A DNA stretch of 32,000 bases from Streptomyces sp. CNQ-509. GTDB taxonomy: Bacteria > Actinomycetota > Actinomycetes > Streptomycetales > Streptomycetaceae. Shown piece by piece: positions 5,751-31,399 of the stretch. The position numbers and the translations under genes were made by a program. The DNA lies in contig NZ_CP011492.1 in the NCBI RefSeq assembly GCF_001011035.1, positions 4,459,516 to 4,491,515 on the forward strand. Direction: 5' to 3'. The notes below the pieces were generated by a model. That model searched no databases. It saw only the letters and a list, made by a program, of their open reading frames with translations, and was not told the DNA's origin. Position 1 is the stretch's first letter. Each line of letters begins with the position of its first letter.

Positions 5751-5754
5751 TGTG

Positions 5755-8458: not shown

Positions 8459-8476
8459 AAAGGAAGGTGTGTCCGT

Positions 8477-15646: not shown

Positions 15647-16174
15647 ATCGGAGTCCCACTCGGGTTCCGACTGAGGTGCCTTCAAGATTCCTGGAACCCG
15701 CGCGCTTCCGCCTGCGGGGACAAGAAGCGCCCGATACCCAAAGGCCAGCGGCACGGCTGGCCCGCCGGCGAGCTGTACACCGGGCACTACCACCGCTCAC
15801 TGCGGCGCGCCGCCGACGCGCTGACCCACCCCGACCTGATCCGCATCGCCTCCGCGCTCCACGGGCTCGTCCCCTTCGACCGCTCGCTGCACCCGTACAA
15901 CGTCACCCTCCGCCACAAGCGGGCGATCACCACGGAGAAGATGAGCGGACACACCCGCGGCTACGGCCTCTTCGACGCCGACGTGATCTTCCTCGGCGGC
16001 CAGGACTACGCCGAACTGCTGCGCCCGTCCGTCCCGCACCTCCTGGCCCCGCTCACCGGACAGATGGGCGAGCACCGCAGGCTGTGCCGCCACGCCCGGG
16101 AGAACCCCGTGCTGCGCGAGACCTGGTGGGAGCAGGCCGCCGCGTTGTTCGACGAGCACCGGCCGGCACCCTGA
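15647..16174 (+). CDS. DUF6884-like protein, 5' end unresolved (possible truncated remnant)
   Basis: The frame opens after TGA at 15644-15646 and has a high-GC3 codon pattern. It encodes ...ACGDKKRPIPKGQRHGWPAGELYTGHYHRSLRRAADAL..LIRIASALHGLVPFDRSLHPYNVTL..., which recalls DUF6884. No ATG, GTG or TTG occurs in frame before the ATG at 15941; only CTG does, for example at 15671. Confidence 0.4.
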   Translation: MGVPLGFRLRCLQDSWNPRASACGDKKRPIPKGQRHGWPAGELYTGHYHRSLRRAADALTHPDLIRIASALHGLVPFDRSLHPYNVTLRHKRAITTEKMSGHTRGYGLFDADVIFLGGQDYAELLRPSVPHLLAPLTGQMGEHRRLCRHARENPVLRETWWEQAAALFDEHRPAP

Positions 16175-16200
16175 CCGCCCGTGGCGGCCCCACCGCCTGG

Positions 16201-16226
16201 AGCTGCAACGCTGAAGAGGCTCACTG
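16201..16226 (+). repeat. 26-nt direct repeat copy A (GCTGCAACGCTGAAGAGGCTCACTGA)
   Basis: 25 of 26 positions are identical to 20654-20679. The sequence corresponds to the HTH-coding part of an IS630-type transposase. Confidence 0.85.
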
Positions 16227-16282
16227 ATCTGGACCACTGTGACAAGGCGACCGAGCCTTGCGTGTTGCCACGGGTGCGACTG

Positions 16283-19200
16283 TCAGGAAGGGCAGATGTC
16301 GGTGGGCACGTTGATGCTGAGTCCGCGGCGCTCGTCGGCGGTGAGTTCCCGGCCGATGGCCTTGCACACATGGCGCTTCCAGAGGGCGGGGTCGAGGCGG
16401 AGCAGGTCGTAGGGCTCAAGGTTCATGGGGTCGCGAAGTATCGCCTTGCCGTCGCTGGTCGCTGCCGGGAAGGCTTGTTCTTCGCCGAATTCGTAGATGT
16501 CCTGGTAGCCGGGTTCGTCGGCCTTGAGGAAGTGGATGGAGCCCTTGTAAGCGAGGAAGAATCCGGCTCCCCCGGTAGGGCGCAGCGACCACTCCTTTGA
16601 CCACTCTTTGTCGGTGAGTGGCCCGAACGGGCCCACTACTCTCCTTGCCGGGCGCCCAGGGTGGACAGACCAGAGCTCAGCCATCTGGGCCGTGGTCAGG
16701 ACGGTTACGTACTCCGGGTCATCCAAGAAGGAGGCCGAAAAAAGGTCATCGGCGAGACGTACGCGGAACTTTTCCTCGGGTTCTCCTGTGCGCAGGTCGA
16801 CGGCGTGCATGTACGGCTCACCGGCCACCGTTACGCTCACAAACCCAGGCTTGGGATGGTCTCGCACAGTGAAGGTGGAAGGGTCCTTCTTGGTCAGGCT
16901 TATATCGTGCAGATCAATGGGCTGCGATAGACGTCGACCACTGCGGGCGTCCCAACTCTCCACGACAGAACCGGACGTCGTGACGATCCGGTTGTCGCCG
17001 TGGAAGCTGAGAAACACCGCTGACTGTTCCCGTGGTTCCGGAGCGGGGGGCTTCGCGGTGCGAAACTCCGCTACCGGACGTAGAGAAGGAAGCGCACGGA
17101 CCACGATTCGATTCCTTTCTAAGACGTCCGCCACCAGTGTTCCGGGCCCGTTTACTTCGAGGGGCACGTATGGTTCTAGAACGGCGCTGGATGTGACCTC
17201 GGAGAGGATCCGTCCTTCGCCTTCTGTCTCCACGACCCGCAGCAGACCGGTGTCTTCCTTCCTTGCCCTGATGACCATCCTGCTGCCGTCGCCGAGCAGC
17301 TGCGGCTCCGGGTCCGTACTGTCGTCGTACAGTGTTCGCGCCCACCCTTTGAGCGCGTTTCCTTCGTTAGTCACCAAGGTTGGTGTTTGAGGAGGCCCGA
17401 CAAGGAAGGGGGTAGAGTCGACCAGCGGGGAGTACTCGGCGCGGTCGGAGTAACTCAGCGGATCGGGGCCGAGGAAATATGTCCGCGGCGGGATACCGGG
17501 GCGAGTACCGACAAGGTCCCAGTGGTTGGACGAACTGTTCACGACCGCGAAATAGTCGCCGGTGCCGTCGACGGCGATGTCGGAAGACGTGCAGTCATAC
17601 TTATATTCGTCCATGCTGACGGTTCTCAGCACCTGCCCGTCCGATACACGAACAACGCGAAACTGTGTCTCCGGACCCGTGCAGGAGACCGCCACGCCGG
17701 CGTTTCCCGAAATCGCGACCGCGGCTCCACTTGACAACTCGCGTATGGCGCCCGTAGCGATGTCGACCTTCACCAGAGAGGGGCGAGGCTGGAGTCGCTT
17801 GGCCACAACCGTGTTCTCGTCGGGCCCGAACCACACGCTGTCCAAGCCACGGATTCGCTTGGGCAGGACCCGAGGCCGCCCGGTCGTCAGGTCCCACAGT
17901 TGCAGGGGCTGTGTCGACACGGACGCGCCGACCAGGAAACGGGAGTCCGGAGAGAAGTCCATGCGGTTACGGCGGCCATCGACTGGTAGCGATTCGGGCT
18001 CCAAGAGCGCGCCTCGGAGGATGCGCATTGGTCCCGCCAGTCGCTCTCCCGTGGGTGTCACGTCGTGCCAGACCACCACGCCGTCCGCGCCGCGCACGTA
18101 GGCAATCCGGCTGCCGTCGGAGCTGACCACAGGGGCCTGGACGTCGTCCACGAAACGGAGCTGCGTATGCCGGACGCTGCCGTCGGCCGTACGGACGAAC
18201 AGGGTCGCTCGGCCCGTCACGCTCGTCACGAGGGCCACCGTTCCCTCATCGCTGACGTCCGCCTCCACTATCTTTCCTTGAGCCCCTGCCAGCACCCACG
18301 CCGCGCCCTTCAGCTCCGCGTACCGCCGCATCAGCGCGCTGCGGGCCTCCTGCGTGGGTGCGATGTCGTACGCCGCAAGCGCTGCCAGACCTGCCTGAGC
18401 GGGGTTGCTGTCCGTCAGTTCGTCCGACTGAATCGCAAGAGACCTTGACTGGCCCTCCGCCGCCCGTTCGGCGCTCACGCGCGACTCTTGCGCGAGGAAT
18501 GTGCCGAGCCCCGCGATCAGCACGAGGGCCGACCCCACCGCGATCCAGCCCGCGCGCACCCGGGCGCGCCGCGCCTGCCGGCGCCTGCGGGCCAGCGTGA
18601 GGAAGTCCCGTTGCTCTTCGGCCAGGTCTTTCTCACGGCCCCGTAATCTTCCTTCCAACGCCGCGAGTTGAAGGGCGCCGGGTAGCAGATCCGCCGGGCT
18701 GTCCGCCTTCCGCCACCGCTCAAGGTCGTGCTGCACCTCCGCCCGGCAGGCGAGGAAGTCCGCGTCGGCCCGGACCAGTTCGAAGAGCGTCGGCCACGCG
18801 GTGATCAGTGCCTCGTGTGCCAACTCGACGCTCTCAGGGCGACCTTCGCCCCCGTACAGGACCAGCAGGCGTCGCTCGGCCAGCGACTGTGCGAGGCGCC
18901 AGCGGCTTTCTCCGGCTTCGTCGCGGGTCAGCCGGCGCCGCAGTGGAGCCTCGCCACCGGGCAGCACCCGGACCAGCCCGGTCAGCAGTGCCAGCGCCTC
19001 AGCCTCGTCCCCAGACGGGACGCACTGCCGCCACGCTGTCTCTGCGTGGCGGCGCAGAGCGCCGGACACCCCGCCGATGTCCTCGTACGTCGTGGCCAGA
19101 AGACGGCCGGCCACCTGGTGCTCCCACAGCTGCTCCAAGACGAAGCCGAGCAGCGGGAGTACGCCTGGTTCGCCGCCCGTGTCGTTCAGTACGCGCCCGG

Positions 19201-20554
19201 CCAGCCCCGGGTCGTATTCCACCGCCGGTACCGTCTCGACCGGTTTGGTGATCACCTCTCGGAGCTGGTCGCGGGACATCGGCGTGAGCGGCAGCGTGGT
19301 ACCACCACGCAGGACAGCTCCGAGGCGCGGGTGTTCGAGGGCAGCATTCATGAAGTCCGCGCGGAGGGTGAGCAGCACCCGTCCCACGGTGGCGGGCAGA
19401 CGGTCGTGGAAGAGCAGTTCCACGAGTTCGCCGAGTTCGGCGTCCGTGCGGTCGACGAGTGCCTCTGCCTGGTCGAGGACGATCAGCGTTCTGCCGGTGG
19501 CCGTGCCGCGGAGCCGGTGGAGCGTGTCGGTGAGCCCCTTGTCCGCGAGCCAGGTCTCCACCTGGTCCACGCTCTCCACCGGCCTTGGTCCGAAACGGCC
19601 TGTACGGACAGCCTCGTGGAGTTCGGTGGCGAGCGCGGAGCGCAGGGACGAGACCTGCCCGGCGTTCACCACGAACACCTCGTACCCGGCCTGCCGCATC
19701 CGCGGAGCAACCCCGGCCAGCGCCAGTGACGACTTCCCGCAGCCCGACGGCCCGTACAAGGTGACAGCGGAGTCGGCGCCACACAGCGCGGTGACAACGC
19801 GCTCTACGTCGCCGTCACGGCCGAAGTAGACGTCCGCATCCTGCTCCTGGAAGGTCGCCAAGCCACGGAAGGGCGTGGGTGGGCTCACAACGGCAGCGAG
19901 CGAGGGAACCTCCCGCAACACGCTTCTGGTCCGCAGCACGTACGCCTGCTGCGCATCCTGCTGCGGCTGTGCGGCCACGAGTAGACCGACCACCGCACCC
20001 AGTTCGTTGTCCCAGACCGGACTGCCGCTGAACCCGCGCTGGACGTGTACGGTCTGCCCATCGGCCCGGGAGAGCTGGAGCCAGCCCTCGCTAGTGGCAC
20101 CGCTGAGCTTTCCGCGGAACCAGGTCTCCCCCGGCTCGCCACCCGTGAACCCCACCGCACGCGCTCCGTGATTCCATACGCTCGCAGCGTCGACCATCGG
20201 CAGGGGATGGGCAAAGGGGATCGCCTCCCGAAGCCGCAGGACCGCGATGTCGCCCGCGTGGCCGGCCCTGATCGGCACCCAATGTTCGACCTCGGCCGAC
20301 CACACGCCGGGCCCGACTCCGTCTCGACGCTCGGCCAACGGCAGCTCGACGTTGACCACCTTCCCGGTCGGCACCGTCTCGTGACGGGGCTGGTCCAACG
20401 CGTCCGACACCACGTGGGCGCAGGTCAGTACCAGATCCGCGGCGACGAGGAAACCCGCTCCGCTCAGCGCCCCGTTCTGCCCGGTGACCCGGACGACCGA
20501 TGAGGCCAGCGCATCGTCCGGACTCGATGGCGTCCTGTACGCGGTACCTGACAT
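16283..20554 (-). CDS. Trypsin-like serine protease + STAND (nSTAND-type) P-loop NTPase + single TM helix + degenerate WD40-like beta-propeller (1423 aa)
   Basis: Protease triad context: LVLTCAHVV (His), GDIAVLRL (Asp), GFSGSPVW (Ser). NTPase: FRGLATFQEQDADVYFGRD..., Walker A LYGPSGCGKSSLALAG (about 19733-19759) and Walker B LIVLDQAEAL. The TM helix AGWIAVGSALVLIAGLGTFLAQ maps to 18488-18553. The C-terminal ~730 aa contain repeats such as LQLWDLTTGRP and VESWDARSGRR. The ATG at 20554 has AGGGGG upstream. Confidence 0.85.
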   Translation of the reverse strand: MSGTAYRTPSSPDDALASSVVRVTGQNGALSGAGFLVAADLVLTCAHVVSDALDQPRHETVPTGKVVNVELPLAERRDGVGPGVWSAEVEHWVPIRAGHAGDIAVLRLREAIPFAHPLPMVDAASVWNHGARAVGFTGGEPGETWFRGKLSGATSEGWLQLSRADGQTVHVQRGFSGSPVWDNELGAVVGLLVAAQPQQDAQQAYVLRTRSVLREVPSLAAVVSPPTPFRGLATFQEQDADVYFGRDGDVERVVTALCGADSAVTLYGPSGCGKSSLALAGVAPRMRQAGYEVFVVNAGQVSSLRSALATELHEAVRTGRFGPRPVESVDQVETWLADKGLTDTLHRLRGTATGRTLIVLDQAEALVDRTDAELGELVELLFHDRLPATVGRVLLTLRADFMNAALEHPRLGAVLRGGTTLPLTPMSRDQLREVITKPVETVPAVEYDPGLAGRVLNDTGGEPGVLPLLGFVLEQLWEHQVAGRLLATTYEDIGGVSGALRRHAETAWRQCVPSGDEAEALALLTGLVRVLPGGEAPLRRRLTRDEAGESRWRLAQSLAERRLLVLYGGEGRPESVELAHEALITAWPTLFELVRADADFLACRAEVQHDLERWRKADSPADLLPGALQLAALEGRLRGREKDLAEEQRDFLTLARRRRQARRARVRAGWIAVGSALVLIAGLGTFLAQESRVSAERAAEGQSRSLAIQSDELTDSNPAQAGLAALAAYDIAPTQEARSALMRRYAELKGAAWVLAGAQGKIVEADVSDEGTVALVTSVTGRATLFVRTADGSVRHTQLRFVDDVQAPVVSSDGSRIAYVRGADGVVVWHDVTPTGERLAGPMRILRGALLEPESLPVDGRRNRMDFSPDSRFLVGASVSTQPLQLWDLTTGRPRVLPKRIRGLDSVWFGPDENTVVAKRLQPRPSLVKVDIATGAIRELSSGAAVAISGNAGVAVSCTGPETQFRVVRVSDGQVLRTVSMDEYKYDCTSSDIAVDGTGDYFAVVNSSSNHWDLVGTRPGIPPRTYFLGPDPLSYSDRAEYSPLVDSTPFLVGPPQTPTLVTNEGNALKGWARTLYDDSTDPEPQLLGDGSRMVIRARKEDTGLLRVVETEGEGRILSEVTSSAVLEPYVPLEVNGPGTLVADVLERNRIVVRALPSLRPVAEFRTAKPPAPEPREQSAVFLSFHGDNRIVTTSGSVVESWDARSGRRLSQPIDLHDISLTKKDPSTFTVRDHPKPGFVSVTVAGEPYMHAVDLRTGEPEEKFRVRLADDLFSASFLDDPEYVTVLTTAQMAELWSVHPGRPARRVVGPFGPLTDKEWSKEWSLRPTGGAGFFLAYKGSIHFLKADEPGYQDIYEFGEEQAFPAATSDGKAILRDPMNLEPYDLLRLDPALWKRHVCKAIGRELTADERRGLSINVPTDICPS

Positions 20555-20639
20555 CGTGCCCCCTGCCTGGATGCCCCTCGGTCAACCTGTTTGAGAATCT
20601 TCCCCAGTTGGGTCCTCGAAGTCACGGCGGCTCCAGCTC

Positions 20640-21058
20640 AGACGCTGCAACGCTGAAGAGGCTCAGTGAGCGGTCGGTGGAGCGGTGGCGCCGGGCCGGC
20701 GCGAACGCGGCGAGGCCGGGGTCCTGACGAAGGAATCGCCGGGCCGCCCGAGACTCGGACCGACGCAGATCGCCAGGCTGGACCGGGAAGGGGAGTGTGG
20801 TCTGCTCGCCCGTGGCTGGGCGGACCAGCGATGGGCGCTGGTGCGGGTGAAGACGCTGATCGGGCGGCTGTTCCACGTGTCCTACATGGTGGAGGGCTCC
20901 TGGCGCCTGCTGAAGCGGCACGGCTGGTCGTGGCAGCAGCCCGCCAGGCGGGCGATCGAGTGGGACGGGGAAGCGGTCGAGCTGTGGAAGAAGGAGGTCT
21001 GGCCGCAGGTAAGGGCACCGCGGCGGCGTGCGACGGCTGGATCGTCTTCGAGAACGAA
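20640..21058 (+). pseudogene. IS630-family transposase fragment (N-terminal HTH region only, frameshifted, truncated at both ends)
   Basis: Spliced by eye across at least 2 frameshifts, it reads AATLKRLSERSVERWRRA / GRRERGEAGVLTKESPGRPRLGPTQIARLDRE..GWADQRWALVRVKTLIGRLFHVSYMVEGSWRLLKRHGWSWQQPARRAIEWDGEAVELWKKEVWPQV / KGTAAACDGWIVFENE. This matches the IS630 N-terminal pattern. No DDE core follows. Confidence 0.7.
20654..20679 (+). repeat. 26-nt direct repeat copy B (GCTGCAACGCTGAAGAGGCTCAGTGA)
   Basis: 25 of 26 positions are identical to 16201-16226. It lies inside the IS630 fragment. Confidence 0.85.
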
Positions 21059-21100
21059 CGTCTTGTCCACCTCTCGGATCTGAACATGCACGGATTCGGA

Positions 21101-24100
21101 TCAGGAGGGGCAGAGTCGGCCCGGGAGCGGTCCCGGCAGCGTATCGCGCTCGTCATCGGTCAGCTCACGGCCGACTACTTTGCAGACTTGCTTCTCCCAG
21201 AGGGCGGGGTCGAGGCGTGTGAGTTTCAGGGGGCCACTCGGAATCGATGTGTCCCTGTCGTCCCGAGCGGGACTACCGAGGAACGCCTTGCCGTCGCTGG
21301 TGTTCGCCGGTTCGAAAAACTGATTCCTTCCGAACTTGTAGGTGTCCCGGTACGACGGATCACTCAAATTGAGGAACACGATGGTATCGCCGTAGGCTAC
21401 AAAGAACTTAGCGTCCGCGGGATTCCCGACCGTGAATTCGCCGGACTCCAGTGGCCCCATTTGCGAAAACACCCTTCGTGGCGGCTTACCTGGCTCAGCA
21501 TTCCACAATTCCAAGACGCGGCCGGTGGTCAATACCGCCATGTACCTGCTGTCCTTGAGGAATTCCGCTGTCAGGAGGTCATCGTGCAATGAGATACGGA
21601 GGTTCTTCCGCTCCCGGCCTGTCCGCAGGTCAACCGCGTACACGTTCGGCTTGCCGGACACGGCAACCCCGATCATCCCCGGAACCCGATGTCTCGAAAT
21701 GAAGTATTCCCGCTTGTCCCGGGAGGTCGGCTGGAGATCCATCAGGTCGATCTGCCCGCCGAGGCGCCGGCCATCGGCGACGTCCCAGTGCTCGACGCGA
21801 GAGCCTGAAAGCGTCACGAGTCGGTCAGCCGGAAGAAATTCGAGGGTGACCGGGTTCGGATCCTTGGGAGCCCATGGCGGTGGGGGCGCAACTTTGAACT
21901 CGGAGATCTTCTTCAGCGATGGCAAGCGGCGTACTGTGACCCGGGTATCGTCCGACACATCCGCCATGAGCGTCTGCGAGTCATTGACGGCGAATAGCTG
22001 ATCCCGGGAAGGCGGTGTCTTGAACGCGACGGACGTCTCGGACACCACTCGTTGGTTCCCTTCGGTCTCCACAATGGTCAGCTTGTCGCCTTCGCCTCTC
22101 GTTCGGACCAGCATCGTGCTCCCGTCGCCCAGCAGGTGCGGGCGTCCGTACGCGGTCTCGCCCTCGGAGTCGGTCAGCTTCTGCCCGATGAGTCTGTTAT
22201 CGCGCAGGACGGGCACGACTGGCTCGTCGGCGGTGCCGAGCAGCGGGAGATCCGGCCCCCCCAGCTCTGGACCGGGGCCGAGGGTCTTCCTGGGGCGGGC
22301 GTCACCACTGGTTGGCAGCACTTCCCAGTCGACGTTGAGAGCGTTGGCCTCCCGGGCGAACCGCGTCCCCGACGGGGCGAGCCGCGTTTCTCCGCACAAG
22401 CCGCGGTCGTCCCGGTAGCTGCGTAGGACCTTCCCGTCCGCCACGCGTATCGCCGTGTAAGAGACGCTGTATTTCTCGACATCGGGGTTTCTTCGGCAGG
22501 AAAGCGCCACAGTTCCGTCGGCCGACACCCAGGCTTCATTTCTCGAATCGTTGGGGTTGTCTTCGAAAGGCTCGGTCAGCCGACGCATTTTCTCGGTCCG
22601 GAGGTCGACGGCGATCATTGATTTGGACGGTGCTTCCAGAACCATCGTCCGGTTGTCAGGACCGAACCACGCCTTCGTCGCGATCGCGTATTTCTCCGGC
22701 AGTTCATGCGTGCGCCCTGTCTCCAGGTCCCACACCCGCACGGGGTGCTCCGGCTGATCGAATACACCGGCGTCGTCTCCCGACTCGACCAGAAATCGAC
22801 CGTCGGGTGAGAAGCTCGTCTCCTTGAACTGAAGCAACGAACTGCTGCGGTCCTGCGCGTCCGGCGCGGTACGCTCCGGCATTTCGAGCGGGTGCCCGCG
22901 GCCTACCAGCGTCTGCCCCGTAAACGAGACGTTGTGCCAGACGACCACCCCGTCGTCCGCTCGTACGTAGGAGATCCGTCGCCCGTCGAAACTTACGTCG
23001 GGGTCATTGATCCTGGGGCGCAGGCGAAGGCTCTCCTGTCGCACCTGGCCCTGTGCCGTTCGTACGAACAGCACTGCGCGCCCACCCTCGGTCTGCACCA
23101 GCGCCACTTTGCCGTCTGCGCTCATCGCGGCGTCCTCGAACTTCCCTTCGGCCGCCGACAGGCTCCACTCCTCGTCGCGGACCTCGGCGTAGCGCCGTAG
23201 CAGCGCATTCCGGGCCTCCTGCGTCGGCGCGGCCTCGTACGCGGCCAGGGCGGCGAGGGCCGCGTGACTGGGATTGGTGTCGACCAGGTCGTCGGACTGC
23301 ACCGCCAGCGCCCTGGAGCGTGCTTCTGCCGCCCGCTGGCTGCTGACCTGGGACTGCAGGACACCGAACGTGGTCAGAGTCGCAATGAGCGTGAGCGTCA
23401 GGGCGCCAGCCGTCCAGCGAAGCCGGGTGCGCTTGCGGGCCGCCCGATGCCGTCTCCGTGCCGCGTGAAGGAACTCACGTTGGTCTTGGGTCAGTTCGTC
23501 GGTGCGACCGTCCAGCCTTTGCATAAGGTTGTCGAGTTGGAAACCGCCCGGTAGCAGGTCCGCACGGCGCTCTGCCTGCTCCCAACGCTCCAGGTCGTGC
23601 TGGATCTCGGCTCGCGCGTTCAGGAAGGCTGCGCCGTCTCTGACTACCTCGGCCAGCTCGGGCCACTCGGTGATCAGCGCCTCGTGTACCAGTTCCACGC
23701 TCTCGGCCTGACCGTTCCCGCCGTACAGGACGAGCAGACGCTTATCCTCCATGGCCATTTCTTGGGCAAGCCGCCAGCGCTCCTCACCGGCCTCCTCGCG
23801 GGTCAGCGGGCGCCGCAGAGTGGCCTCCCCGCCCGGAACCACCCGCACGAGGCCGGCCAGCAGACGTCGTGCCTCCGCCTCTGATTCGGGCGACACACAC
23901 TGCTTCCATACCTGTTTGGCATGGTTGACCAAAGCGCCCTTGACACCACCGATCTGCTGGTAGGTCGCGGCGCTCAGCTGTCCGCCGTGCTGCTTGTCCC
24001 ACAGCTCCTTCAGCAGGAACCCTAAGAGCGGCAGAATGCCCGGATCGGTGCCGGCGTCGTCCAGAATCCGCATGTCGAGGCCGGGGTCGTAGAACACCGC

Positions 24101-25423
24101 GGGCGCCTGTTCGAGGGGGCGGGTGATGACCGCGTGGAGTTGGCCCCGGGTCATCGGTGCCAGTGGCAAGGTCCTTCCGGAGGTCAGCACGGGTGCCAGC
24201 AGTGCGTGATTCAGCGCCGTGTTGATGACGTCGGCGCGCAAGGTGGCGAGGATCCGCAGCCCGCCGCGACGGGGCGGGAACAGCAACTCCAGCGTCTCGG
24301 CGAGCTTCGGATCCGGCAGGCTGAGCAGTGCTTCCGCTTGATCGAGTACGACGAGCAAATGCTCCGCGGGGCGCCCGGTTGCGCGGTGGAAGGCGTCAAC
24401 CAGCCCTACATCCCTCAGCCACACGTCCACTTGATCTACGCTCCGTACCCGCGCGATCCCGTCGGAGCGGGAGCCGCCAGCTCCGCCTACCGCGTACTCG
24501 AAGAGAGACGTCGCCAGTGCGGCTGTCGACGCCGACGTACTGACACAGTCGACGATCAGGACATCCCACCCGGATCTGCGGAGTTGCGGCACCACACCGG
24601 CACGCGCGAGGGAGGACTTGCCGCTGCCGGACGGGCCGCACAGCGTGACGATCGGGTGGTTGCCCTTCAGCTCTGTGACCACCCGGGAGATGTCCTCGTC
24701 CCGGCCGAAGAACCGTTCTTCGTCGCCCTCGCTGAACCGCCGCAGACCGAGGAACGGATTGGCGGGCAGCAGAATCTGCCTGAGCTCCGGAACCCGCTCG
24801 GACAGCGTTTCCGTACGGATCACGAACGCCTGCTGCGCCTCCTGCTCCGGTTGAGATGCGACGACCATGCCCACCGCCGCACCCAGGTCGTCGTCCCAGA
24901 CCGGGCTCCCGCTGAACCCCGGCTTCACGTAGACGGCTTGGTCGTTGTCCCGCGAGAGCTGCACCAAGGAACTCCCGACAGGGCCACGAAACCGCCCCTT
25001 CTGCCAGTCACCGCCGGACATGTCGCGGGTGAAGCCGACCGCCCGGGTCTCGTGGTCCCAGACCTCCCGCCTGTCAGCCATCGGTAAAGGGCGCCCGCCT
25101 GGCAGGGGTGCGGGCAAGCGCAGCACGGCGATATCGCCGCCCTGGTCCGCTTCGACCGGCGTCCAGTGCTTCACGCCCGCAGTCCAGGTGGTGTCGCCGG
25201 GGACGAACGGCAGGTCGAGCCGGACCTGACGGCCCAGGTCAACGGGGGAGTCCCGGTCCAGCCCCAGGGCATCGGACACCACATGAGCGCAAGTCAGCAC
25301 CGTGTCGCTGGCGATGAGGAAGCCGGCACCGACGATCGCGCCGTCCTGAGTCAGGATTCGGACGATCGACGAGGCCATGGCGGGTTCGGATGCCTCCCGG
25401 CCCCTCGGCCCGTGCTCAGCCAC
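21101..25423 (-). CDS. Paralogous trypsin-like protease + STAND NTPase + TM helix + beta-propeller protein (about 1440 aa)
   Basis: Same architecture as 16283-20554: TVLTCAHVV, GDIAVLRL, GFSGSPVW; Walker A LCGPSGSGKSSLARAG (about 24612-24640); Walker B LLVVLDQAEAL. The TM helix LRWTAGALTLTLIATLTTFGVLQ maps to 23354-23422. The C-terminal tail RLDPALWEKQVCKVVGRELTDDER...CPS is shared. I prefer the GTG at 25423, which overlaps the upstream stop, has GGAG upstream and gives an N-terminal length matching the paralog. ATG 25378 and the ORF-track ATG 25516 are alternatives. Confidence 0.85.
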   Translation of the reverse strand: MAEHGPRGREASEPAMASSIVRILTQDGAIVGAGFLIASDTVLTCAHVVSDALGLDRDSPVDLGRQVRLDLPFVPGDTTWTAGVKHWTPVEADQGGDIAVLRLPAPLPGGRPLPMADRREVWDHETRAVGFTRDMSGGDWQKGRFRGPVGSSLVQLSRDNDQAVYVKPGFSGSPVWDDDLGAAVGMVVASQPEQEAQQAFVIRTETLSERVPELRQILLPANPFLGLRRFSEGDEERFFGRDEDISRVVTELKGNHPIVTLCGPSGSGKSSLARAGVVPQLRRSGWDVLIVDCVSTSASTAALATSLFEYAVGGAGGSRSDGIARVRSVDQVDVWLRDVGLVDAFHRATGRPAEHLLVVLDQAEALLSLPDPKLAETLELLFPPRRGGLRILATLRADVINTALNHALLAPVLTSGRTLPLAPMTRGQLHAVITRPLEQAPAVFYDPGLDMRILDDAGTDPGILPLLGFLLKELWDKQHGGQLSAATYQQIGGVKGALVNHAKQVWKQCVSPESEAEARRLLAGLVRVVPGGEATLRRPLTREEAGEERWRLAQEMAMEDKRLLVLYGGNGQAESVELVHEALITEWPELAEVVRDGAAFLNARAEIQHDLERWEQAERRADLLPGGFQLDNLMQRLDGRTDELTQDQREFLHAARRRHRAARKRTRLRWTAGALTLTLIATLTTFGVLQSQVSSQRAAEARSRALAVQSDDLVDTNPSHAALAALAAYEAAPTQEARNALLRRYAEVRDEEWSLSAAEGKFEDAAMSADGKVALVQTEGGRAVLFVRTAQGQVRQESLRLRPRINDPDVSFDGRRISYVRADDGVVVWHNVSFTGQTLVGRGHPLEMPERTAPDAQDRSSSLLQFKETSFSPDGRFLVESGDDAGVFDQPEHPVRVWDLETGRTHELPEKYAIATKAWFGPDNRTMVLEAPSKSMIAVDLRTEKMRRLTEPFEDNPNDSRNEAWVSADGTVALSCRRNPDVEKYSVSYTAIRVADGKVLRSYRDDRGLCGETRLAPSGTRFAREANALNVDWEVLPTSGDARPRKTLGPGPELGGPDLPLLGTADEPVVPVLRDNRLIGQKLTDSEGETAYGRPHLLGDGSTMLVRTRGEGDKLTIVETEGNQRVVSETSVAFKTPPSRDQLFAVNDSQTLMADVSDDTRVTVRRLPSLKKISEFKVAPPPPWAPKDPNPVTLEFLPADRLVTLSGSRVEHWDVADGRRLGGQIDLMDLQPTSRDKREYFISRHRVPGMIGVAVSGKPNVYAVDLRTGRERKNLRISLHDDLLTAEFLKDSRYMAVLTTGRVLELWNAEPGKPPRRVFSQMGPLESGEFTVGNPADAKFFVAYGDTIVFLNLSDPSYRDTYKFGRNQFFEPANTSDGKAFLGSPARDDRDTSIPSGPLKLTRLDPALWEKQVCKVVGRELTDDERDTLPGPLPGRLCPS

Positions 25424-25799
25424 GACGCTCTCCGCTGTCTGGCGGCCGTGGTTCGGCGTTGTCGTGGCGCCAGGTGAGGCTGACCGAGAAATTCGCCGCT
25501 GCCGAAGAACCGGCAATGAGGATCTTCGCGTCGGCCGTCAGGGACATACCGAACTGCAAGGTGGCCTCGTCGGGCTGTCGCCCCATGTCCTGGCAGCGCC
25601 CGACGAACGCGTTGGCCACGGGCCGGACCACTTCCAACATCCGGTCCAGGGACTCCTCGGCCCTGGCCGCAGTCCGGCTACCACGGCCGACCCGGACCAC
25701 GGACTCGTCCGCCTCTTCGACCTGCACCCGCACGACGCCCTCGCCGTCGTTCAGGGGTACTTCGACCACATGGAAGGAGCGGCGTTCGTTTGAAACCAT
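25416..25799 (-). CDS. Trypco2-like (trypsin co-occurring domain) small protein
   Basis: ATG at 25799 with GAGGA upstream; 127 aa. The C-terminal block LQFGMSLTADAKILIAGSSAAANFSVSLTWR matches my memory of the small partner proteins encoded immediately upstream of protease-NTPase conflict genes. Its stop overlaps the GTG of the downstream gene. Confidence 0.6.
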   Translation of the reverse strand: MVSNERRSFHVVEVPLNDGEGVVRVQVEEADESVVRVGRGSRTAARAEESLDRMLEVVRPVANAFVGRCQDMGRQPDEATLQFGMSLTADAKILIAGSSAAANFSVSLTWRHDNAEPRPPDSGERRG

Positions 25800-26360
25800 G
25801 CGAATCCTCGTCTCAGGGGCCGACACGCCTGAAGTCCAAGGGGCGAGCGTACGTACGGCATGCCCGGTCAGGAGACATGATCGTCCCTTTTGGCGCAAAC
25901 CCTCCCCTGCTGCCACCTGGTGATCACCGTCCCGCCTCAACGGGTGGATCCGCCTGGCCCGCCCGGTACACGCCACACTCGGCACAGGTCACCATCGCGT
26001 GCTCGCGGAAGAGCGGCTGTTTCCAGGGCAACATCGGGCCGTCGAATTGTTCGTGAGTGAGCACCCGCATCTCCGGCGGAAGGAAGTCGCTTACCACGCG
26101 GGCTGGTACGGCGTGCTACAGCTCCGGCCGCACCTGCTCGACCTCTGCTGCCCCCGCCTGACCCGGTCGCGCCGCCCGCTCGAAGAACCGGCGCCCACCC
26201 TCGCCCAGCTTGGCGGGGCGGCGGCATATCTGGTGAAACACCTGACGTCCTCCCTCATCTCCTTCACCTACAAGACGTGTCCCGCACTGTGGCCGCTCTC
26301 CGAATCGCGTAGTCCCGCGGGAGGGACTGATGGCCGCCAAGCCTTCGCGCCTGCGGCTGT

Positions 26361-28103
26361 TCAGTAGGACTTGGTGGTTCCGCTGTCGGCGGGGGCCGTA
26401 CGTGCTGCTCGCGGCGGAGACGGCCGTGGTGTGGGTGGCGAGTTTCGCGTGGCGTTCGTGGCGGGCTGTGGTGTCCCCAGGGGCAAGTGTGCCGTGCGGC
26501 GCAGCCGCCATACGAGAACGTCGCTGACGGAATCTGCGGTGCCCAGTTCACGGCGGTGTGCGGCTCGGGCCAGCAGGGCGGTCGGGTCGTGGCCGGCACG
26601 TTGGGCGTCGGCGAGGGTCGCCGCGAGGGCGCACCAGCCGGGTTCGCTGAGGATCTGCTCGACCAGTTCCGGCAGCGCCTCGCGGAGCTGGGCGGCATGG
26701 CGCCGCTCTTGCGGGGGTGGAAGGCGCCGGCCGCGGTGCGCCAGAGCCGCCAGCGGTGCAGGGGCGGCTGCCCGGTAGGCGGAGCGCAGGTGTTCGGCGG
26801 TCTGGCGGGCGGCGGCGGCCTGCTGTGCGTGGCCTTTCTTCGCGTGCCAGTGCGCGGCGGCGGTGATGAGGAAGAACAGCATGTCGATGGCCATCGCGGT
26901 GGTTGCTCCGTCTTCGCCGTAGCCGAGTGCGGGACCGCCGTGGACGAGGTCGCCCGCGGCCCTTCGCAGCGCGGGGTCATGTCCCCGTACGGCGCGGATG
27001 TGGGAGCGCGAGGCCCGCTCGAAGGCAGTGGCTGCGGCCTGGAGTTCGCGGCGGGTGTGGGCGGCGGACGTCTTCGCGAGCGCGTCCAGGACCTCCCCGG
27101 CCGCGGCGATATGGGCGGCGGCAACGGCGTCCGGCCCGCTGTCGACGACGAGCACGGCCTGCCACGCGGCTGACGCGGCGTGCCATCGGGCGGTCGCCGG
27201 AGCGCCCGGCGCGGTGCGGTCCTCCTGGTGCGGCCGAGTGCGCTGGCCGCCGTCTGGGTGCGGGGCGTCGCCGGTCCAGCGTTCCCGGATGCGAGGGAGC
27301 GAGAGGTCGGGGGCTAGGCGGGCGCCGGGATAGAACACCGGCTGGCCGTCCTTGTTCCGATCGTCGGGCAGGGCGACTTTGTATCCGAGGAGGTCGCCGA
27401 ACGGTGCGGCGCGCTTGCGGATGAGGAGGCCGGCGTCGGCGAGCCGGTCGAAGAACTCGTCTTCGCTGGTCGCGCCGGCCACCGCCTGCCGTACCGTCTC
27501 GCGCAGTTCTTCGCGGGCGGTGCGCTCGCGGCCCTGACGTCTGGCTTTGTGGCGTTCGGCGCTGGTGGGCCGCTGTGCGGCGGTGCCGTCGCCGGGGGCG
27601 ACTTGGTGCAGGCCGAGTTCCTTTTCGATGAGGCGGGCTTCGGCCTGGGCGCGGGTGCCGGAGCGGTAGTCGTCGGGGCGGTGGCCGTCTTCGGTGACGA
27701 GGGTGGCGACGATGTGGATGTGGTCGTCCGCGTGCCGTATGGCGGCCCAGCGGCAGCCGGGCTGTCCGCCGCCGGGGTCGATGCCGGTGGCGGCGACGAT
27801 GCGGCGGGCGATGCCGGCCCATTCCTCGTCGGACAAGACCCGGTCCCTGGGGTCGGCGCGTACGGAGGTGTGCCATACGTGCTTGGCGGGGCGGGCGTGT
27901 GAGGCGAGGGCCATGACGGGCTGGTCGAGGAGTTGCTGGAGGTCGGTGAGGGTGGTGTTCGGGTCGCGGCCGGGGTCGGGGGACATGCCGTCAAACGAGG
28001 CCACGAGGTGCGGGTCGGTGTGCTCCTCGGCCTTGCCGGGGCCGTAGAGGTAGGCGAGGAGTCCGATGGTCCGCGAACCCGAGGAGTTGACGCTGGGGAT
28101 CAC
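26361..28103 (-). CDS. MOB relaxase / mobilization nuclease (MobA/VirD2 family)
   Basis: GTG at 28103 overlaps the MobC stop (GTGA). The N-terminus is VIPSVNSSGSRTIGLLAYLYGPG, and the histidine triad region is WAAIRHADDHIHIVATLV. A long Ala/Arg-rich C-terminal domain with DSVSDVLVWRLRR follows, as in actinomycete relaxases. Confidence 0.9.
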   Translation of the reverse strand: MIPSVNSSGSRTIGLLAYLYGPGKAEEHTDPHLVASFDGMSPDPGRDPNTTLTDLQQLLDQPVMALASHARPAKHVWHTSVRADPRDRVLSDEEWAGIARRIVAATGIDPGGGQPGCRWAAIRHADDHIHIVATLVTEDGHRPDDYRSGTRAQAEARLIEKELGLHQVAPGDGTAAQRPTSAERHKARRQGRERTAREELRETVRQAVAGATSEDEFFDRLADAGLLIRKRAAPFGDLLGYKVALPDDRNKDGQPVFYPGARLAPDLSLPRIRERWTGDAPHPDGGQRTRPHQEDRTAPGAPATARWHAASAAWQAVLVVDSGPDAVAAAHIAAAGEVLDALAKTSAAHTRRELQAAATAFERASRSHIRAVRGHDPALRRAAGDLVHGGPALGYGEDGATTAMAIDMLFFLITAAAHWHAKKGHAQQAAAARQTAEHLRSAYRAAAPAPLAALAHRGRRLPPPQERRHAAQLREALPELVEQILSEPGWCALAATLADAQRAGHDPTALLARAAHRRELGTADSVSDVLVWRLRRTAHLPLGTPQPATNATRNSPPTPRPSPPRAARTAPADSGTTKSY

Positions 28104-28726
28104 GAGCTGCGGCGCTCGATGAGCCGTGCGGCGGCTTCGTGGGTGGTGTCGGCGGCTCGCCGTACGGCGGTGACGGCCGCTTCCAGATAGGGGGCGTCTG
28201 CTCCTGAGTTGAGTGCTTTGGCGGCTTGGTTGAGGTTGCTGCCGGCCCAGCCGAGGCGGCGTCGGCAGTCGAACAGGGCGGTGATCACTTCGCGTTCGTC
28301 GGCGATCTCGGCGCTGGTGCGGTCGAGGTCGCGGGCGGCGGCGAGCGCGGAGCGGGCGAGGAACCCGGCGACGGACAGGTGGCACCGGGCGGCGGCGGAC
28401 TTGATCAGAGTGATCTCGTCGTCGTTGAAGCGGGTGGCGGGCTGGTGCAGGCGCTTCTTCTCGCGCGGCTGACGCGGGCGCTGATGGGCACGGGGCGCGC
28501 GCTGTCGGCGGGCGCTGCGGTCGGTGGGCTTGTCCTCCTTCCCTGGCTTCGATCCGCCCTCGGTCGAAGCCCCAAGGACCTGCGCCCCCCGGTGCAGGTC
28601 CTGGCCCGCCCCCTTCGGGGCGGGTTCGGCGGAAGCTATGCTTCCGCCCCAACTTGCTCGCCCAGCAACCGAGTTGATCTCGCCGTCACGTTGGGGGGTG
28701 TTCCAGTTCGGCGCTGGAGTTGTCAT
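28100..28726 (-). CDS. mobC: MobC-like relaxosome accessory protein
   Basis: ATG at 28726 shares its A with the upstream TGA (TGATG). The C-terminal half TRFNDDEITLIKSAAARCHLSVAGFLARSALAAA...LGWAGSNLNQAAKALN fits the ribbon-helix-helix MobC pattern. The N-terminal half is basic and disordered. Confidence 0.75.
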   Translation of the reverse strand: MTTPAPNWNTPQRDGEINSVAGRASWGGSIASAEPAPKGAGQDLHRGAQVLGASTEGGSKPGKEDKPTDRSARRQRAPRAHQRPRQPREKKRLHQPATRFNDDEITLIKSAAARCHLSVAGFLARSALAAARDLDRTSAEIADEREVITALFDCRRRLGWAGSNLNQAAKALNSGADAPYLEAAVTAVRRAADTTHEAAARLIERRSS

Positions 28727-28920
28727 CAGCCGCATTCCAGGCAGCGGGCGAGGTGGCCGGAGAGGGCGCGGGCCATCCGTGCCTTGGTCGATGCGGCCTG
28801 TGTTGCGCTGCATCTCGCCGCCGGGCGGCCCTGGTGTCGTACGGAGTGGGCGGTGAGGTAGCCGATCTCCCGTTCGTAGACCGCCTGGAGGGCGGCGAAG
28901 TCGGCGCAGGTCTTGATCAT
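28726..28920 (-). CDS. Small hypothetical protein (64 aa)
   Basis: It is coupled at both ends (ATGA at 28917-28920, TGATG at 28724-28728), which argues for translation. I recognise no family. Confidence 0.4.
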   Translation of the reverse strand: MIKTCADFAALQAVYEREIGYLTAHSVRHQGRPAARCSATQAASTKARMARALSGHLARCLECG

Positions 28921-30629
28921 GTGGTGTCCTTCGTCGTCGTGGCGTGGTTGTCGCTGCGCAGTTCGTGCAGGACGAGGCTGAGTTGGGAGTTCCGGCCGCC
29001 TACGAGTCCTTCGCGGCGGAGGATCTCCCGCAGCTGGACCCGGGTGACCGCGGTGTTGCCGTCGCGGGCGAGCAGGTCCGGGACGTGGGGCCGTACCTGC
29101 TGGACAAGCTGGTCCACCGACAGCGCGGGGTCCTGCTGGCGAGGGGTGCGGGATCGGCTGCTGCGCTTGCCCCGGCTCTTCTTCGTGTGCGCCTTCTTGC
29201 GCCGCACGGTCCCCGGTCCCCGGTCCCGGCCCGGTCCCCGGTGGGGGGTGGGCTCGGTCCCCGGGTGGTCTTCCGCGGGTGCGGGGACCGGTCCCCGCGC
29301 TGGTGTTGTCGCGGTCCCCGGTTCGCGGTGTTCTGGCTCCGTGCCGGTCCCTGGGTGGTGTGGTGCGGGTGCGGGGACCGGTCCCTGTGGCGGGTTCGGT
29401 CCCCGGTCCCCGGCTTCGGTGTGGGGACCGGGTGCGGGGACCGGCGGGTCCGGGACCGTCGGCGGGTTGACTTGGTCATTCATGGAGGTGGGGACCGGTC
29501 CCCGGTTCGGCGTCATCGCGGTCCCCGGTTCACGGTCTTCTCGTTCCGTGCCGGTGCCCGGGTGGTGTGGTGCGGGTGCGGGGACCGGTCCCCGTGGCGG
29601 GTTCGGTCCCAGGTCCCCAGCCTCGCTCGGGGTGTGGGGACCGGGCGCGGGGACCGACCCGGTCGGCGGGTTGATCCGGGAACCCATGGGAGCGGGGACC
29701 GGTCCCCGCAGCCGGTTCGGTCCCCGGTCCCCGGCGACGGGGACCGTCGGTGCGGGGACCGCGGTGTCGAGGGTGCCGGCGGTGGGCGGGGACCAGGGGG
29801 AGGGGAGGGCGATGGTGGCGAGGGCGACTGCGTGGCGGCGGGCGGCGAGTTGTCGGAGCAGGCGTGCGCGCTGGTCGGGGTCGGTGCCGACCTCGGCCTT
29901 GCCGAGGGCTTTCGACAGCCGGCGGGTCAGGCGCCGGCCGCGGCGATCGTGTTGCTGCTCGGGCGTCTGCTCGGCGAGCCGGGCGGCCAGGGCGACCGCG
30001 CGGTCGGTGGCCCGGTCCCGGGTGATCTGCGCGGCGTCACGGTCGCGGGCGGCGATGCCCAGGCGGGACAGGAGGCGTTCGCGGGCTTCCCGCCCGAGGG
30101 TGGCGATCAGCGAGCGGGAGGCGGCGCCGGGCGTGCGCAGGCGCAGTTCGATGCCCATGGCCAGGTGCCACAGCACCGCGGCCATGATGGGGCCGACGAA
30201 GGCGCGGACGGTGCCGCCGACCGGGCCGCTTTCGGCGTAGGCGGGGATCACCTGGACCCCGCTGATGATCCAGACCAGGGTGCCGGGCACGCCGGGCGCG
30301 CCCTGGGTGGTGAGGTTCTGGCGGGCCATCAGCGCGGTCGCGAAGAGCGCCAGCTCGGCTGCCGCGAACATGCCGGCGCGTTCGGCGGTGCCGGCCATGT
30401 CGAGGTAGTCGGCGGCGAACCGCCAGGAGGTGTCGGCGCTGTAGGCGGTGCAGGCGAGGGCGGCCACCGCGGCGATGGCGACCGCGGCACTGCCGCGACG
30501 TTCCCGTGACCGGGCGCTGCGCCGCCGCAGCACCCGGACGGCCAGCACGATGGCGAAGGCGGCGAGCAGTGCGGTGGCGAGGAAGAGGTCCAGTTCCGGA
30601 GCGGTGACGGGGGGCAGGACCGCGGTCAT
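28917..30629 (-). CDS. DUF2637-like membrane protein with an internal 69-aa Pro/Gly-rich tandem repeat and a basic C-terminal DNA-binding-like tail
   Basis: ATG at 30629 overlaps the WhiB-like stop (ATGA). The N-terminal ~190 aa carry about 4 TM helices (LFLATALLAAFAIVLAV, AAVAIAAVAALACTAY, MFAAAELALFATALMA, AFVGPIMAAVLWHLAMGI). The middle contains the repeats GDRGPNPPxGPVPAPAPHHPGTGTE.E.REPGTA. The tail is KKAHTKKSRGKRSSRSR...VTRVQLREILRREGL. The family call is from memory. Confidence 0.6.
   Translation of the reverse strand: MTAVLPPVTAPELDLFLATALLAAFAIVLAVRVLRRRSARSRERRGSAAVAIAAVAALACTAYSADTSWRFAADYLDMAGTAERAGMFAAAELALFATALMARQNLTTQGAPGVPGTLVWIISGVQVIPAYAESGPVGGTVRAFVGPIMAAVLWHLAMGIELRLRTPGAASRSLIATLGREARERLLSRLGIAARDRDAAQITRDRATDRAVALAARLAEQTPEQQHDRRGRRLTRRLSKALGKAEVGTDPDQRARLLRQLAARRHAVALATIALPSPWSPPTAGTLDTAVPAPTVPVAGDRGPNRLRGPVPAPMGSRINPPTGSVPAPGPHTPSEAGDLGPNPPRGPVPAPAPHHPGTGTEREDREPGTAMTPNRGPVPTSMNDQVNPPTVPDPPVPAPGPHTEAGDRGPNPPQGPVPAPAPHHPGTGTEPEHREPGTATTPARGPVPAPAEDHPGTEPTPHRGPGRDRGPGTVRRKKAHTKKSRGKRSSRSRTPRQQDPALSVDQLVQQVRPHVPDLLARDGNTAVTRVQLREILRREGLVGGRNSQLSLVLHELRSDNHATTTKDTT
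29206..29790. repeat. Tandem repeat array, period 207 bp (about 2.5-2.8 copies), rich in the 14-bp perfect palindrome GGGGACCGGTCCCC
   Basis: The unit starting at 29310 recurs at 29517. Perfect palindrome copies lie at 29283, 29490, 29580 and 29694, and a 13/14 copy at 29373. Many GGGGACC/GGTCCCC half-sites are also present. The period is a multiple of 3 and lies inside the CDS 28917-30629. Confidence 0.9.
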
Positions 30630-31267
30630 AGGGCCTTTCCAGCAGGGATGGATGCGGTGGTCGACGCGGCGGTTCGGGCTATCGGCTGCCGAGTACGGGG
30701 CCTGCTCGGTGCAGGAGCGTCCACGGCTGGGCTTGTCTTGTGCCGTTTCCTCTTCGGCTGGGGTACGCCGTAGGTGCGGTCGCGGTCGAAGACCTTCAGG
30801 GCGGCTTGCCGGAGCAGGTCCCGGGCATGCCGGTGGCTGATCTGCAGGGCGGCGGCGAGCCGGTCGGGCCGCCAGCCCCGGAGGTAGGCGTGGTCCATGA
30901 CGAGCTGCCGCTCAGCCTCGGTCAAGTGCACATCGCGTCCGTCGAAGAACGCGCGCACGCGCCGATAGTCCAGACGGTGAGGAAGCCCGTCGTGCCAAGG
31001 GCGCCGCTCGGCCTCGGTCAGCCCGCCCCAGATACCTTCCCTGAGGCCGTTTTCCACCGCGTAGTTCAGGCAGTCGCTGCGCACCGGGCACAGGGCGCAC
31101 AGCTCCTTCGCCTCGGCGACGGCGATGTGGTCCCGCGGGGGCGGGAAGAACACCTCGTCGGCCTCCACCGAGTCCAGGCCGTAGCACGCGCCGCGGCTGT
31201 GCCAGCTCGTGTCGGCGATGCCGCGCAGGCCGCTGGCCGGCGCCTCGTGAGTGGTGATGTATCGCAA
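30626..31267 (-). CDS. WhiB-like (Wbl) Fe-S transcription factor fused to a C-terminal sigma70-region-4/LuxR-like HTH
   Basis: The Wbl Cys pattern is GACYG...AKELCALCPVRSDCLNYAV, followed by GIWGGLT. The C-terminal part LTEAERQLVMDHAYLRGWRPDRLAAALQISHRHARDLLRQAALKV is followed by a basic tail. Confidence 0.85.
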   Translation of the reverse strand: MRYITTHEAPASGLRGIADTSWHSRGACYGLDSVEADEVFFPPPRDHIAVAEAKELCALCPVRSDCLNYAVENGLREGIWGGLTEAERRPWHDGLPHRLDYRRVRAFFDGRDVHLTEAERQLVMDHAYLRGWRPDRLAAALQISHRHARDLLRQAALKVFDRDRTYGVPQPKRKRHKTSPAVDAPAPSRPRTRQPIARTAASTTASIPAGKAL

Positions 31268-31399
31268 GGAACGGTCTCCGATGGGCTGCGCGCTGGGCGG
31301 ACGCGACGTCGGGCACCGCTGCCGAACAACCAGGGGTGCCGCAGCGGAGGTGAGGGGCTATCCGGGCCGGGGGGATGCCGCCCCGGTCTGCGTGGTCGG

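Follow-up and report, generated by a model that had tools for sequence, protein, structure and literature searches.

Trypco1 and Trypco2 were named, in a study of NTP-dependent conflict systems, as mutually exclusive neighbors of trypsin-like peptidases in such systems (Kaur et al. eLife 2020, PMC7159879), and nSTAND1 was named in counter-invader systems in a second study (Kaur et al. eLife 2021, PMC8195603). External beta-propellers on actinobacterial Ser/Thr kinases are mentioned in the first study as a known signaling design (Kaur 2020, PMC7159879). Experiments have been reported for SsPepco of Streptomyces subrutilus, which forms SDS-resistant 9-10-mer beta-barrels; the trypsin-like protease of the neighboring SsAvs4, cutting after a conserved Ile97, trims a 2-kDa charged, Pro-rich tail from the C terminus of SsPepco, the trimmed form is toxic, in line with pore formation in the membrane, and "transmembrane STAND ATPases" are mentioned among the Pepco-linked sensors (Evans et al., bioRxiv 10.1101/2025.11.14.688446). 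SsPepco belongs to Trypco2, according to the supplement legends of that work and to Pfam. Here we describe a related locus in a 32,000-nucleotide (nt) stretch of Streptomyces sp. CNQ-509 (hereafter the window), which encodes a Trypco1 protein (Trypco1-A) and two giant proteins, A and B, each composed of a trypsin-like protease, an nSTAND1 NTPase, a transmembrane (TM) helix, and a double beta-propeller. The locus is a further member of a computationally predicted class that is abundant in Actinobacteria and has been in print since 2020. An earlier interpretation made from the DNA letters alone (the sequence-only reading) had proposed a conflict/defense-type module, and this is supported by the profile matches, by a pairing kept in many genera, and by the exchange of N-terminal effectors on a shared chassis; its statement that no system of this class had been characterized experimentally is outdated by the work of Evans et al. 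on Pepco/SsAvs4. We consider it somewhat probable that the window holds two modules of Trypco1 plus protease-nSTAND1-TM-propeller giant, that the giants are membrane receptors acting through Trypco1 cleavage and cell death, and that giant B is now either an orphan or dependent on Trypco1-A.

Three intact open reading frames (ORFs) lie on the minus strand between 16283 and 25799 and encode giant B, giant A, and the 127-aa Trypco1-A (Table 1). The sequence-only reading had correctly recognized the two same-strand giants with their shared architecture, the span of giant A, and the 127-aa ORF directly upstream of the upstream giant at 25416-25799. The translational coupling that it had proposed for Trypco1-A and giant A is not established: counted from the conserved ATG at 25378, a gap of 37 nt follows the Trypco1-A stop, and the two genes overlap, by 8 nt, only if an alternative in-frame GTG at 25423, which would lengthen giant A by 15 codons, is the start. 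Both giants match the nSTAND1 profile (PF20703) over its full length (281 and 278 bits versus a cutoff of 27.1), and both match Trypsin_2. When 122 family members were aligned, the catalytic His, Asp, and Ser, the Walker A motif GPSGxGKSS, and the Walker B motif VLDQAE all proved to be at least 95% conserved, and the His and Ser motifs of the giant A protease align to SplD/trypsin. A sequence search of the PDB with the protease part returned nothing significant. Thus, a protease with intact His, Asp, and Ser contexts and a STAND-type P-loop NTPase with Walker A and B motifs, both described previously, were recovered by profile matches and family-wide conservation, and the protease encoded next to Trypco1-A is predicted by its motifs to be catalytically competent.

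The small protein, whose sequence is that of AA958_19190 of Streptomyces sp. CNQ-509 (100% identity), matched Pfam Trypco1 (PF19493) with an E value of 7.7e-24 (84.6 bits versus a cutoff of 24.6; profile positions 1-97 of 98) and NCBIfam CU044_2847 with an E value of 2.4e-20 (73 bits versus a cutoff of 23). Trypco2 (PF19631), the family to which it had initially been assigned, gave no match to the 127-aa protein at E ≤ 0.1, and that assignment is ruled out by the Trypco1 matches together with an hhalign comparison of the Trypco1 alignment with SsPepco, a Trypco2 (probability 0.2%, no homology). In the family alignment, a highly conserved core ending in ANFSVSLTW110 is followed by tails of 12-40 aa that vary in length and sequence and are rich in D, E, P, and G; in Trypco1-A the tail comprises residues 111-127. 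The AlphaFold2 (AF2) monomer model shows, in order, an N-terminal hairpin, a low-confidence loop with VRVGRGxR, a long helix, three strands, and a disordered tail. The VRVGRGxR motif, at residues 35-42, is invariant, and the exposed-looking Arg/Gly loop is, in the model, a candidate protease site or oligomer interface. A longer invariant pattern, E..VRVGRGxR...RAE (residues 32-48; window 25656-25706), falls within the lowest-confidence loop of the AF2 model. Two segments, LQFGMSLTA and NFSVSLTW, show the strict alternation of hydrophobic and small polar residues seen in amphipathic strands, and these putative strands echo membrane-inserting beta hairpins. The core ends in an invariant Trp110, and the sole conserved Ile (I95) is located inside a predicted strand; cleavage could occur after Trp110 or within the invariant Arg/Gly loop. 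By analogy with SsPepco, Trypco1-A is predicted to be a protease substrate and a latent membrane toxin.

Each giant contains a single strongly hydrophobic 19-mer (Kyte-Doolittle [KD] scores of 1.6 and 2.05) after an Arg/Lys run, in agreement with the one TM helix per giant described previously. Topology was evaluated in 39 diverse relatives reaching down to ~27% identity in the C-terminal part. A comparable hydrophobic segment was present in all 39 (KD 1.7-2.9), and the number of Lys and Arg residues was 4-10 in the 15 residues before the segment and 0-4 after it. Because of this bias and the positive-inside rule, the protease and NTPase are predicted to be cytoplasmic and the C-terminal ~745 aa to lie outside the cell. 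The extracytoplasmic (ecto) region of giant A has exactly four Cys, all conserved family-wide, and exactly four are also found in this region in 28 of the 39 relatives, which suggests two disulfides. An AF2 model of the giant A ecto region, built from a 72-sequence alignment, reached a predicted local distance difference test (pLDDT) score of 89.7 and a predicted template modeling (pTM) score of 0.89 and consists of three helices followed by ~57 strands, equivalent to roughly 14 blades, and by a short helical tail. When this model was compared with the PDB using Foldseek, the best matches were the tandem seven-bladed WD40 double propellers Pwp2, Apaf-1, and AIP1 (E ~1e-20); a PDB sequence search with the ecto part yielded nothing significant. 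The degenerate beta-propeller region proposed from the letters alone is thereby sharpened to a double propeller, with a predicted location outside the cell.

The module is widespread. More than 760 giant homologs were found at E ≤ 1e-10, in Actinobacteria; the best 120 are nearly all 1390-1490 aa long with the same Pfam content and belong to Streptomyces, Nocardiopsis, Salinispora, Embleya, Sphaerisporangium, Streptosporangium, Actinopolyspora, and other genera. We inspected 12 giant loci (the two in the window, referred to as window-A and window-B, and L001-L007, L011, L013, and L015). A Trypco1 gene is located 24-46 nt upstream of the giant in 10 of them, while the giants of window-B and L005 are orphaned. 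The paired loci span Streptomyces, Nocardiopsis, Sphaerisporangium, and Actinopolyspora, with unrelated neighbors, and ~30 further giant/Trypco1 pairs, each with both members on the same contig, appear in the hit tables, including adjacent locus tags in S. tendae. Since the neighboring genes vary between genomes, the module is a self-contained two-gene cassette. A search with the ecto region among 1.8 billion representative proteins gave 55 clusters at E ≤ 1e-30; short, apparently partial ones aside, nearly all are of similar length and match at the same position. The length variants that were sampled keep nSTAND1 and vary at the N terminus, which carries TIR plus trypsin, a protein kinase, a longer extension before trypsin, or no recognizable effector. 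Such exchange of effectors while the sensor chassis stays constant is characteristic of STAND immune receptors. The mobility of the cassette and its patchiness are more in keeping with conflict than with housekeeping, without proving a conflict role. Given hundreds of equivalent modules in Streptomyces and relatives, the locus itself is not unusual.

Among described systems, Pepco/SsAvs4 resembles the locus in that a small gene lies immediately upstream of the gene for a STAND protein with an N-terminal trypsin-like protease, both systems are actinobacterial, and the small protein has, besides a structured core and amphipathic beta strands, a C-terminal tail that is disordered and charged/Pro-rich. 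The differences are that the small protein here is a Trypco1, not a Trypco2, and is without the conserved Ile cleavage site, and that the giants have nSTAND1 in place of the Avs4 NTPase and an external double propeller in place of the cytosolic portal-binding TPR. The predictions of Kaur, Burroughs, Iyer, and Aravind share with the locus Trypco1, Trypsin_2, nSTAND1, the neighbor relationship, and the enrichment in multicellular actinobacteria; however, the available portions of these papers place Trypco mainly in vWA-MoxR ternary systems and nSTAND1 with EAD or lectin-type sensors, and the TM plus double-propeller chassis and the two-gene form were not found in those portions (PMC7159879, PMC8195603). 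Apaf-1 and Apaf-1-like bacterial WD40 STANDs likewise have a STAND NTPase followed by two seven-bladed beta-propellers, as well as a protease output, which is a recruited caspase or, in bacteria, a fused caspase-like domain (Nature 2026, PMC13581612). By contrast, the NTPase of the giants is nSTAND1 and not NB-ARC, their sensor is placed outside by the TM helix and the positive-inside bias, and a serine protease with its own small predicted substrate provides the output.

In the mechanism that we favor, each giant would be a single-pass membrane receptor with a cytoplasmic protease and STAND NTPase and, outside, a disulfide-stabilized double beta-propeller. Binding of an extracytoplasmic cue, possibly a surface phage component, envelope damage, or a foreign surface molecule, would drive NTP-dependent oligomerization of the STAND module. 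Oligomerization would gather and thereby activate the N-terminal trypsin-like proteases, the activated protease would cut the co-encoded Trypco1, and the cut Trypco1 would damage or permeabilize the membrane, so that the hyphal compartment dies or arrests. We infer the cleavage of Trypco1, its toxicity, and a role in defense by analogy with the tested Trypco2 pair, Pepco/SsAvs4. A similar logic operates in bacterial gasdermin-protease systems, in which a sensor-linked protease frees a membrane-permeabilizing protein encoded alongside; to our knowledge, Trypco1 has no sequence or fold in common with gasdermin, and the parallel is one of analogy only. A more far-reaching version, which we regard as rather doubtful, is an outside-in, NLR-like receptor in which an outside ligand on the fast-evolving double propeller drives the STAND module, and the protease arms Trypco1 as a new pore-former. 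The ligand could come from a phage (a tail or receptor-binding protein), or it could be a secreted toxin particle or the surface of a non-self hypha; Trypco1, which is unrelated in sequence to Trypco2/Pepco, may in this version be cut at a site other than that of Pepco, with the VRVGRGxR loop and the bond after Trp110 as candidates. The characterized STAND/NLR-type immune sensors of which we are aware detect their ligands intracellularly, and we know of no characterized bacterial or eukaryotic STAND protein shown to carry out surface surveillance; an outside sensor, if true, would extend STAND logic to the surface.

Several observations weigh against the proposed receptor and cleavage mechanism. 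The published experiments known to us concern a Trypco2 Pepco, and none a Trypco1 or a TM-nSTAND1 giant. The SsAvs4 protease is only marginally similar to that of the giants, and its alignment with giant A is limited to the region of the His motif, the hhalign result separates Trypco1 from SsPepco, and the Trypco1 tails in the family alignment hold no Pepco-type conserved Ile after the core. The AF2 monomer of Trypco1-A is of moderate confidence (pLDDT 64; ~43-54 in the tail), and Foldseek found no match to it in the PDB (E > 0.3). PADLOC models recognized no known defense system at the locus; the PADLOC/NCBIfam system models gave only weak matches to the protease part (RT-Protease_XI, 5.5e-5; Avs1b, 0.02) and none to Trypco1. 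In other genomes, the module sits amid ordinary metabolic and regulatory genes, with no obvious defense islands. Finally, the ratio of nonsynonymous to synonymous substitution rates (dN/dS) stays below 1 throughout in all eight orthologue pairs analyzed, so an arms race is not proven.

To compare the two halves of the giants, dN/dS was calculated by the Nei-Gojobori method on these eight pairs. The values were 0.14-0.28 for the cytoplasmic half versus 0.25-0.67 for the ecto half, a difference that was significant in five of the eight pairs; the ecto half thus evolves about twice as fast. The sensor half evolves faster, without demonstrated positive selection. For giant B and its orthologue in the sister strain Streptomyces sp. 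CMB-StM0423, dN/dS was 0.15 in the cytoplasmic half and 0.67 in the ecto half. Giants A and B are 47% identical overall; the cytoplasmic halves are 55% and the ecto halves 46% identical, and identity falls to a trough of 33-37% at giant A residues ~900-1100, in propeller 1, and blades 3 and 5-7 of propeller 1 are the least conserved family-wide. The sequence-only reading therefore overstated the case in having the propellers differ far more. Its suggestion of diversifying sensor domains is weakly supported, in that dN/dS is higher in the ecto half but never reaches 1.

Comparison with CMB-StM0423 indicates how the tandem arose. In this strain, the same relaxase/WhiB element is followed by one module, consisting of a 123-aa Trypco1 and a giant whose amino acid sequence is 97% identical to that of giant B; the module abuts the relaxase/WhiB element in both strains. 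As determined by blastn, 26331-31999 of the window matches CMB-StM0423 at 89.5% and 15709-20643 at 97.6%, and the 5.7-kb segment at 20644-26330, which contains an insertion sequence (IS) fragment of IS630-like type, giant A, and Trypco1-A, is absent from it. The 97.6% block begins at 20643, which corresponds to codon 104 of the 123-aa Trypco1; therefore, Trypco1-B, the original partner of giant B, retains its last ~20 codons only, and codons 1-103 have been replaced. The 546 bp between the giants is thus not plain spacer and includes the IS630-like orfA fragment, with 77-84% DNA identity to winged helix-turn-helix (wHTH)/transposase genes on Streptomyces plasmids, plus the last ~20 codons of the destroyed Trypco1-B. 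A 26-nt direct repeat brackets giant B and the Trypco1-B relic. The copy at 20644-20669 coincides exactly with the edge of the inserted segment, and the IS630-like fragment starts there; the copy at 16202-16227 is present once, at the same place, in CMB-StM0423. This latter copy may well be a small remnant of that IS orfA and possibly served as recombination microhomology. The nearest relatives of giant A (67-69% identity) occur in other Streptomyces; every one of them is accompanied by a Trypco1 of its own, and no further giant lies within 6 kb. Because CMB-StM0423 has a single module and the relatives of giant A are found elsewhere, the tandem is the result of an IS-associated segment with a complete giant A module that landed in, and destroyed, the Trypco1-B gene of the resident module. 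In situ tandem duplication was rejected, as giants A and B are 47% identical, closer orthologues of each exist elsewhere, and CMB-StM0423 has one giant; what had been regarded as diverged paralogs of local origin are two separately derived modules joined by an IS-associated insertion. Moreover, the different identities of the 89.5% and 97.6% blocks mean that the region is a mosaic of segments with different histories.

The fate of giant B bears on how many modules are active. With its partner and original upstream region gone, giant B is either a decaying orphan or a user of Trypco1-A in trans. It might instead be a non-functional relic, unexpressed or left with no substrate, so that only giant A and Trypco1-A are active; we rate this possibility as appreciable, though a little short of even. 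The loss of Trypco1-B codons 1-103 and of the upstream region, a similar orphaning in L005, a frameshifted giant A orthologue elsewhere, which shows that such genes do decay, and the raised ecto dN/dS of giant B against CMB-StM0423 (0.67) all agree with it, whereas the giant B ORF remains open for all 1423 codons and retains every catalytic motif, and the cytoplasmic half has a dN/dS of 0.15 in the same comparison. In addition, Trypco1-A, ~54% identical to B-type Trypco1 and encoded 5 kb upstream, could serve in trans, and some family members have no protease, so the chassis may act in other ways. The window offers a natural comparison between one complete module and one with its effector gene destroyed, and the effector-less giant B allows a test of partner use in trans.

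Two further explanations concern the function of the module and the position of its sensor. A non-immune role in envelope or developmental signaling, with propellers monitoring the cell wall or a self-made signal and with Trypco1 processed by the protease as a regulatory or morphogenetic factor, e.g., in programmed hyphal death in the course of development, and not as a toxin against invaders, would be compatible with the mostly housekeeping or regulatory contexts elsewhere, the overall purifying selection on both halves, the kinase-headed variant of the chassis, and the lack of a system recognized by PADLOC; propeller-bearing actinobacterial Ser/Thr kinases are also known, as the available text of Kaur 2020 (PMC7159879) indicates. 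We nonetheless consider such a role improbable, because the module is patchy, strain-specific, and mobile-element-linked (one in CMB-StM0423, two here), orphaning and frameshifts recur, the N terminus has been swapped with TIR, and the accessible part of the literature ties the Trypco family to conflict systems throughout. Much less credible still is that the hydrophobic segment is a mere tether and that the propellers detect phage proteins in the cytoplasm, in the manner of Apaf-1-like bacterial STANDs. Apaf-1 is indeed among the Foldseek matches, and cytosolic WD40-STAND defense clades have been described in the literature; however, a single-pass helix cannot keep both flanks cytoplasmic, the NTPase requires cytoplasmic NTP, all 39 relatives show the N-terminal K/R bias, and a count of exactly four conserved Cys is usual for the ecto region. 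Altogether, the membrane-receptor and Trypco1-cleavage mechanism remains the reading that we prefer.

Table 1. Features of the Trypco1/giant locus (window coordinates; ecto, extracytoplasmic)
Feature	Position	Strand	Description
Trypco1-A gene	25416-25799	-	127 aa; directly upstream of giant A
Giant A	21101-25378	-	1425 aa from ATG at 25378; trypsin-like protease, nSTAND1, TM helix, double beta-propeller
Giant A trypsin-like Ser protease	24866-25330	-	His32, Asp82, Ser156 (ATG numbering); Pfam Trypsin_2, E 8.6e-14
Giant A nSTAND1 NTPase	23561-24757	-	Walker A GPSGSGKSS, Walker B VVLDQAE; Pfam nSTAND1, E 2.7e-82, match 1-378 of 379
Giant A TM helix TAGALTLTLIATLTTFGVL	23357-23413	-	Preceded by ARRRHRAARKRTRLRW; from hydropathy; predicted N terminus in, C terminus out
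Giant A ecto region	21104-23341	-	746 aa: three helices, two seven-bladed beta-propellers, C-terminal helical tail
Candidate Trypco1 N-terminal relic	21053-21097	-	15 codons, ESVHVQIREVDKTFV vs EVIRVQIREVDESVV; tblastn E 0.14; uncertain
IS630-like orfA internal fragment	20644-21058	+	415 bp; wHTH, Pfam HTH_33, E 6e-19; without first ~42 codons and DDE part
Trypco1-B 3' relic	20582-20643	-	Last ~20 codons and stop; original partner of giant B
Giant B	16283-20554	-	1423 aa; intact ORF, architecture as giant A; own Trypco1 gone
Giant B protease	19982-20461	-	Pfam Trypsin_2, E 6e-15
Giant B nSTAND1	18698-19873	-	Pfam nSTAND1, E 2e-83
Giant B TM helix	18491-18547	-	From hydropathy
Giant B ecto region	16286-18475	-
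26-nt repeat	16202-16227	+	Second copy 20644-20669; one mismatch; zero matches expected by chance
DUF6884 gene fragment	15647-16174	+	Downstream of giant B; CMB-StM0423 homology breaks inside, at 15709

Other loci and searches provided additional observations. In L005 (Streptomyces sp. NPDC060366), the last 33 Trypco1 codons (7859-7957) lie upstream of an intact giant B orthologue (89% identity), and another Trypco1 is found on a different contig of that genome (P0036); this is a second, independent orphaning. In L003 (Streptomyces sp. BBFR102 chromosome), the giant A orthologue at 6001-10282 is open for 967 codons, after which homology continues in another frame; this reflects either a sequencing error or a frameshift in a copy that is probably decaying, and the Trypco1 upstream of it is intact. 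A scan of 15600-26500 revealed no promoter-like sites and fewer terminator-like sites than expected by chance. The PHROG scan of the locus gave a sole match, phrog_923 (function unassigned), to the STAND part: this 990-position profile matches giant A residues 208-639 (window 23462-24757) with an E value of 9e-24, which means that phages or prophages encode related STAND NTPases. When the locus was compared with plasmids by Megablast, matches were confined to the IS fragment and distant giants; therefore, it is not a known plasmid locus.

The Trypco1-like stretch at 21053-21097 was considered as a 5' relic of the same Trypco1-B and rejected, since 31 of 45 nt (69%) are identical to the CMB-StM0423 Trypco1 gene, compared to 97.6% for the 3' relic; it represents either another gene copy or chance similarity. 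Downstream of giant B, the ORF at 15643-16227 is in the wrong frame, and the real gene is the DUF6884 fragment at 15647-16174; the break in homology at 15709 marks another rearrangement boundary. Beyond giant B, CMB-StM0423 has a group II intron reverse transcriptase and a GmrSD-type restriction gene, and the window has a GntR regulator and the mer/transposase island. The flanks agree with the sequence-only reading, which had placed the locus between a metal island and a mobilizable element: mer genes and transposases lie to one side of it and a relaxase/WhiB element lies to the other. The latter, a relaxase/WhiB/zinc-finger element, occupies 26331-31999. The metal island at 3633-14100 encodes MerB, MerR, a MerA-like oxidoreductase, a P-type ATPase, DUF169, a CdhD/ferredoxin-like protein, and a methyltransferase; this mercury/metal island is flanked by a split DDE transposase (DUF772 plus DDE_Tnp_1_6), and an integrase fragment is located at 23-562.

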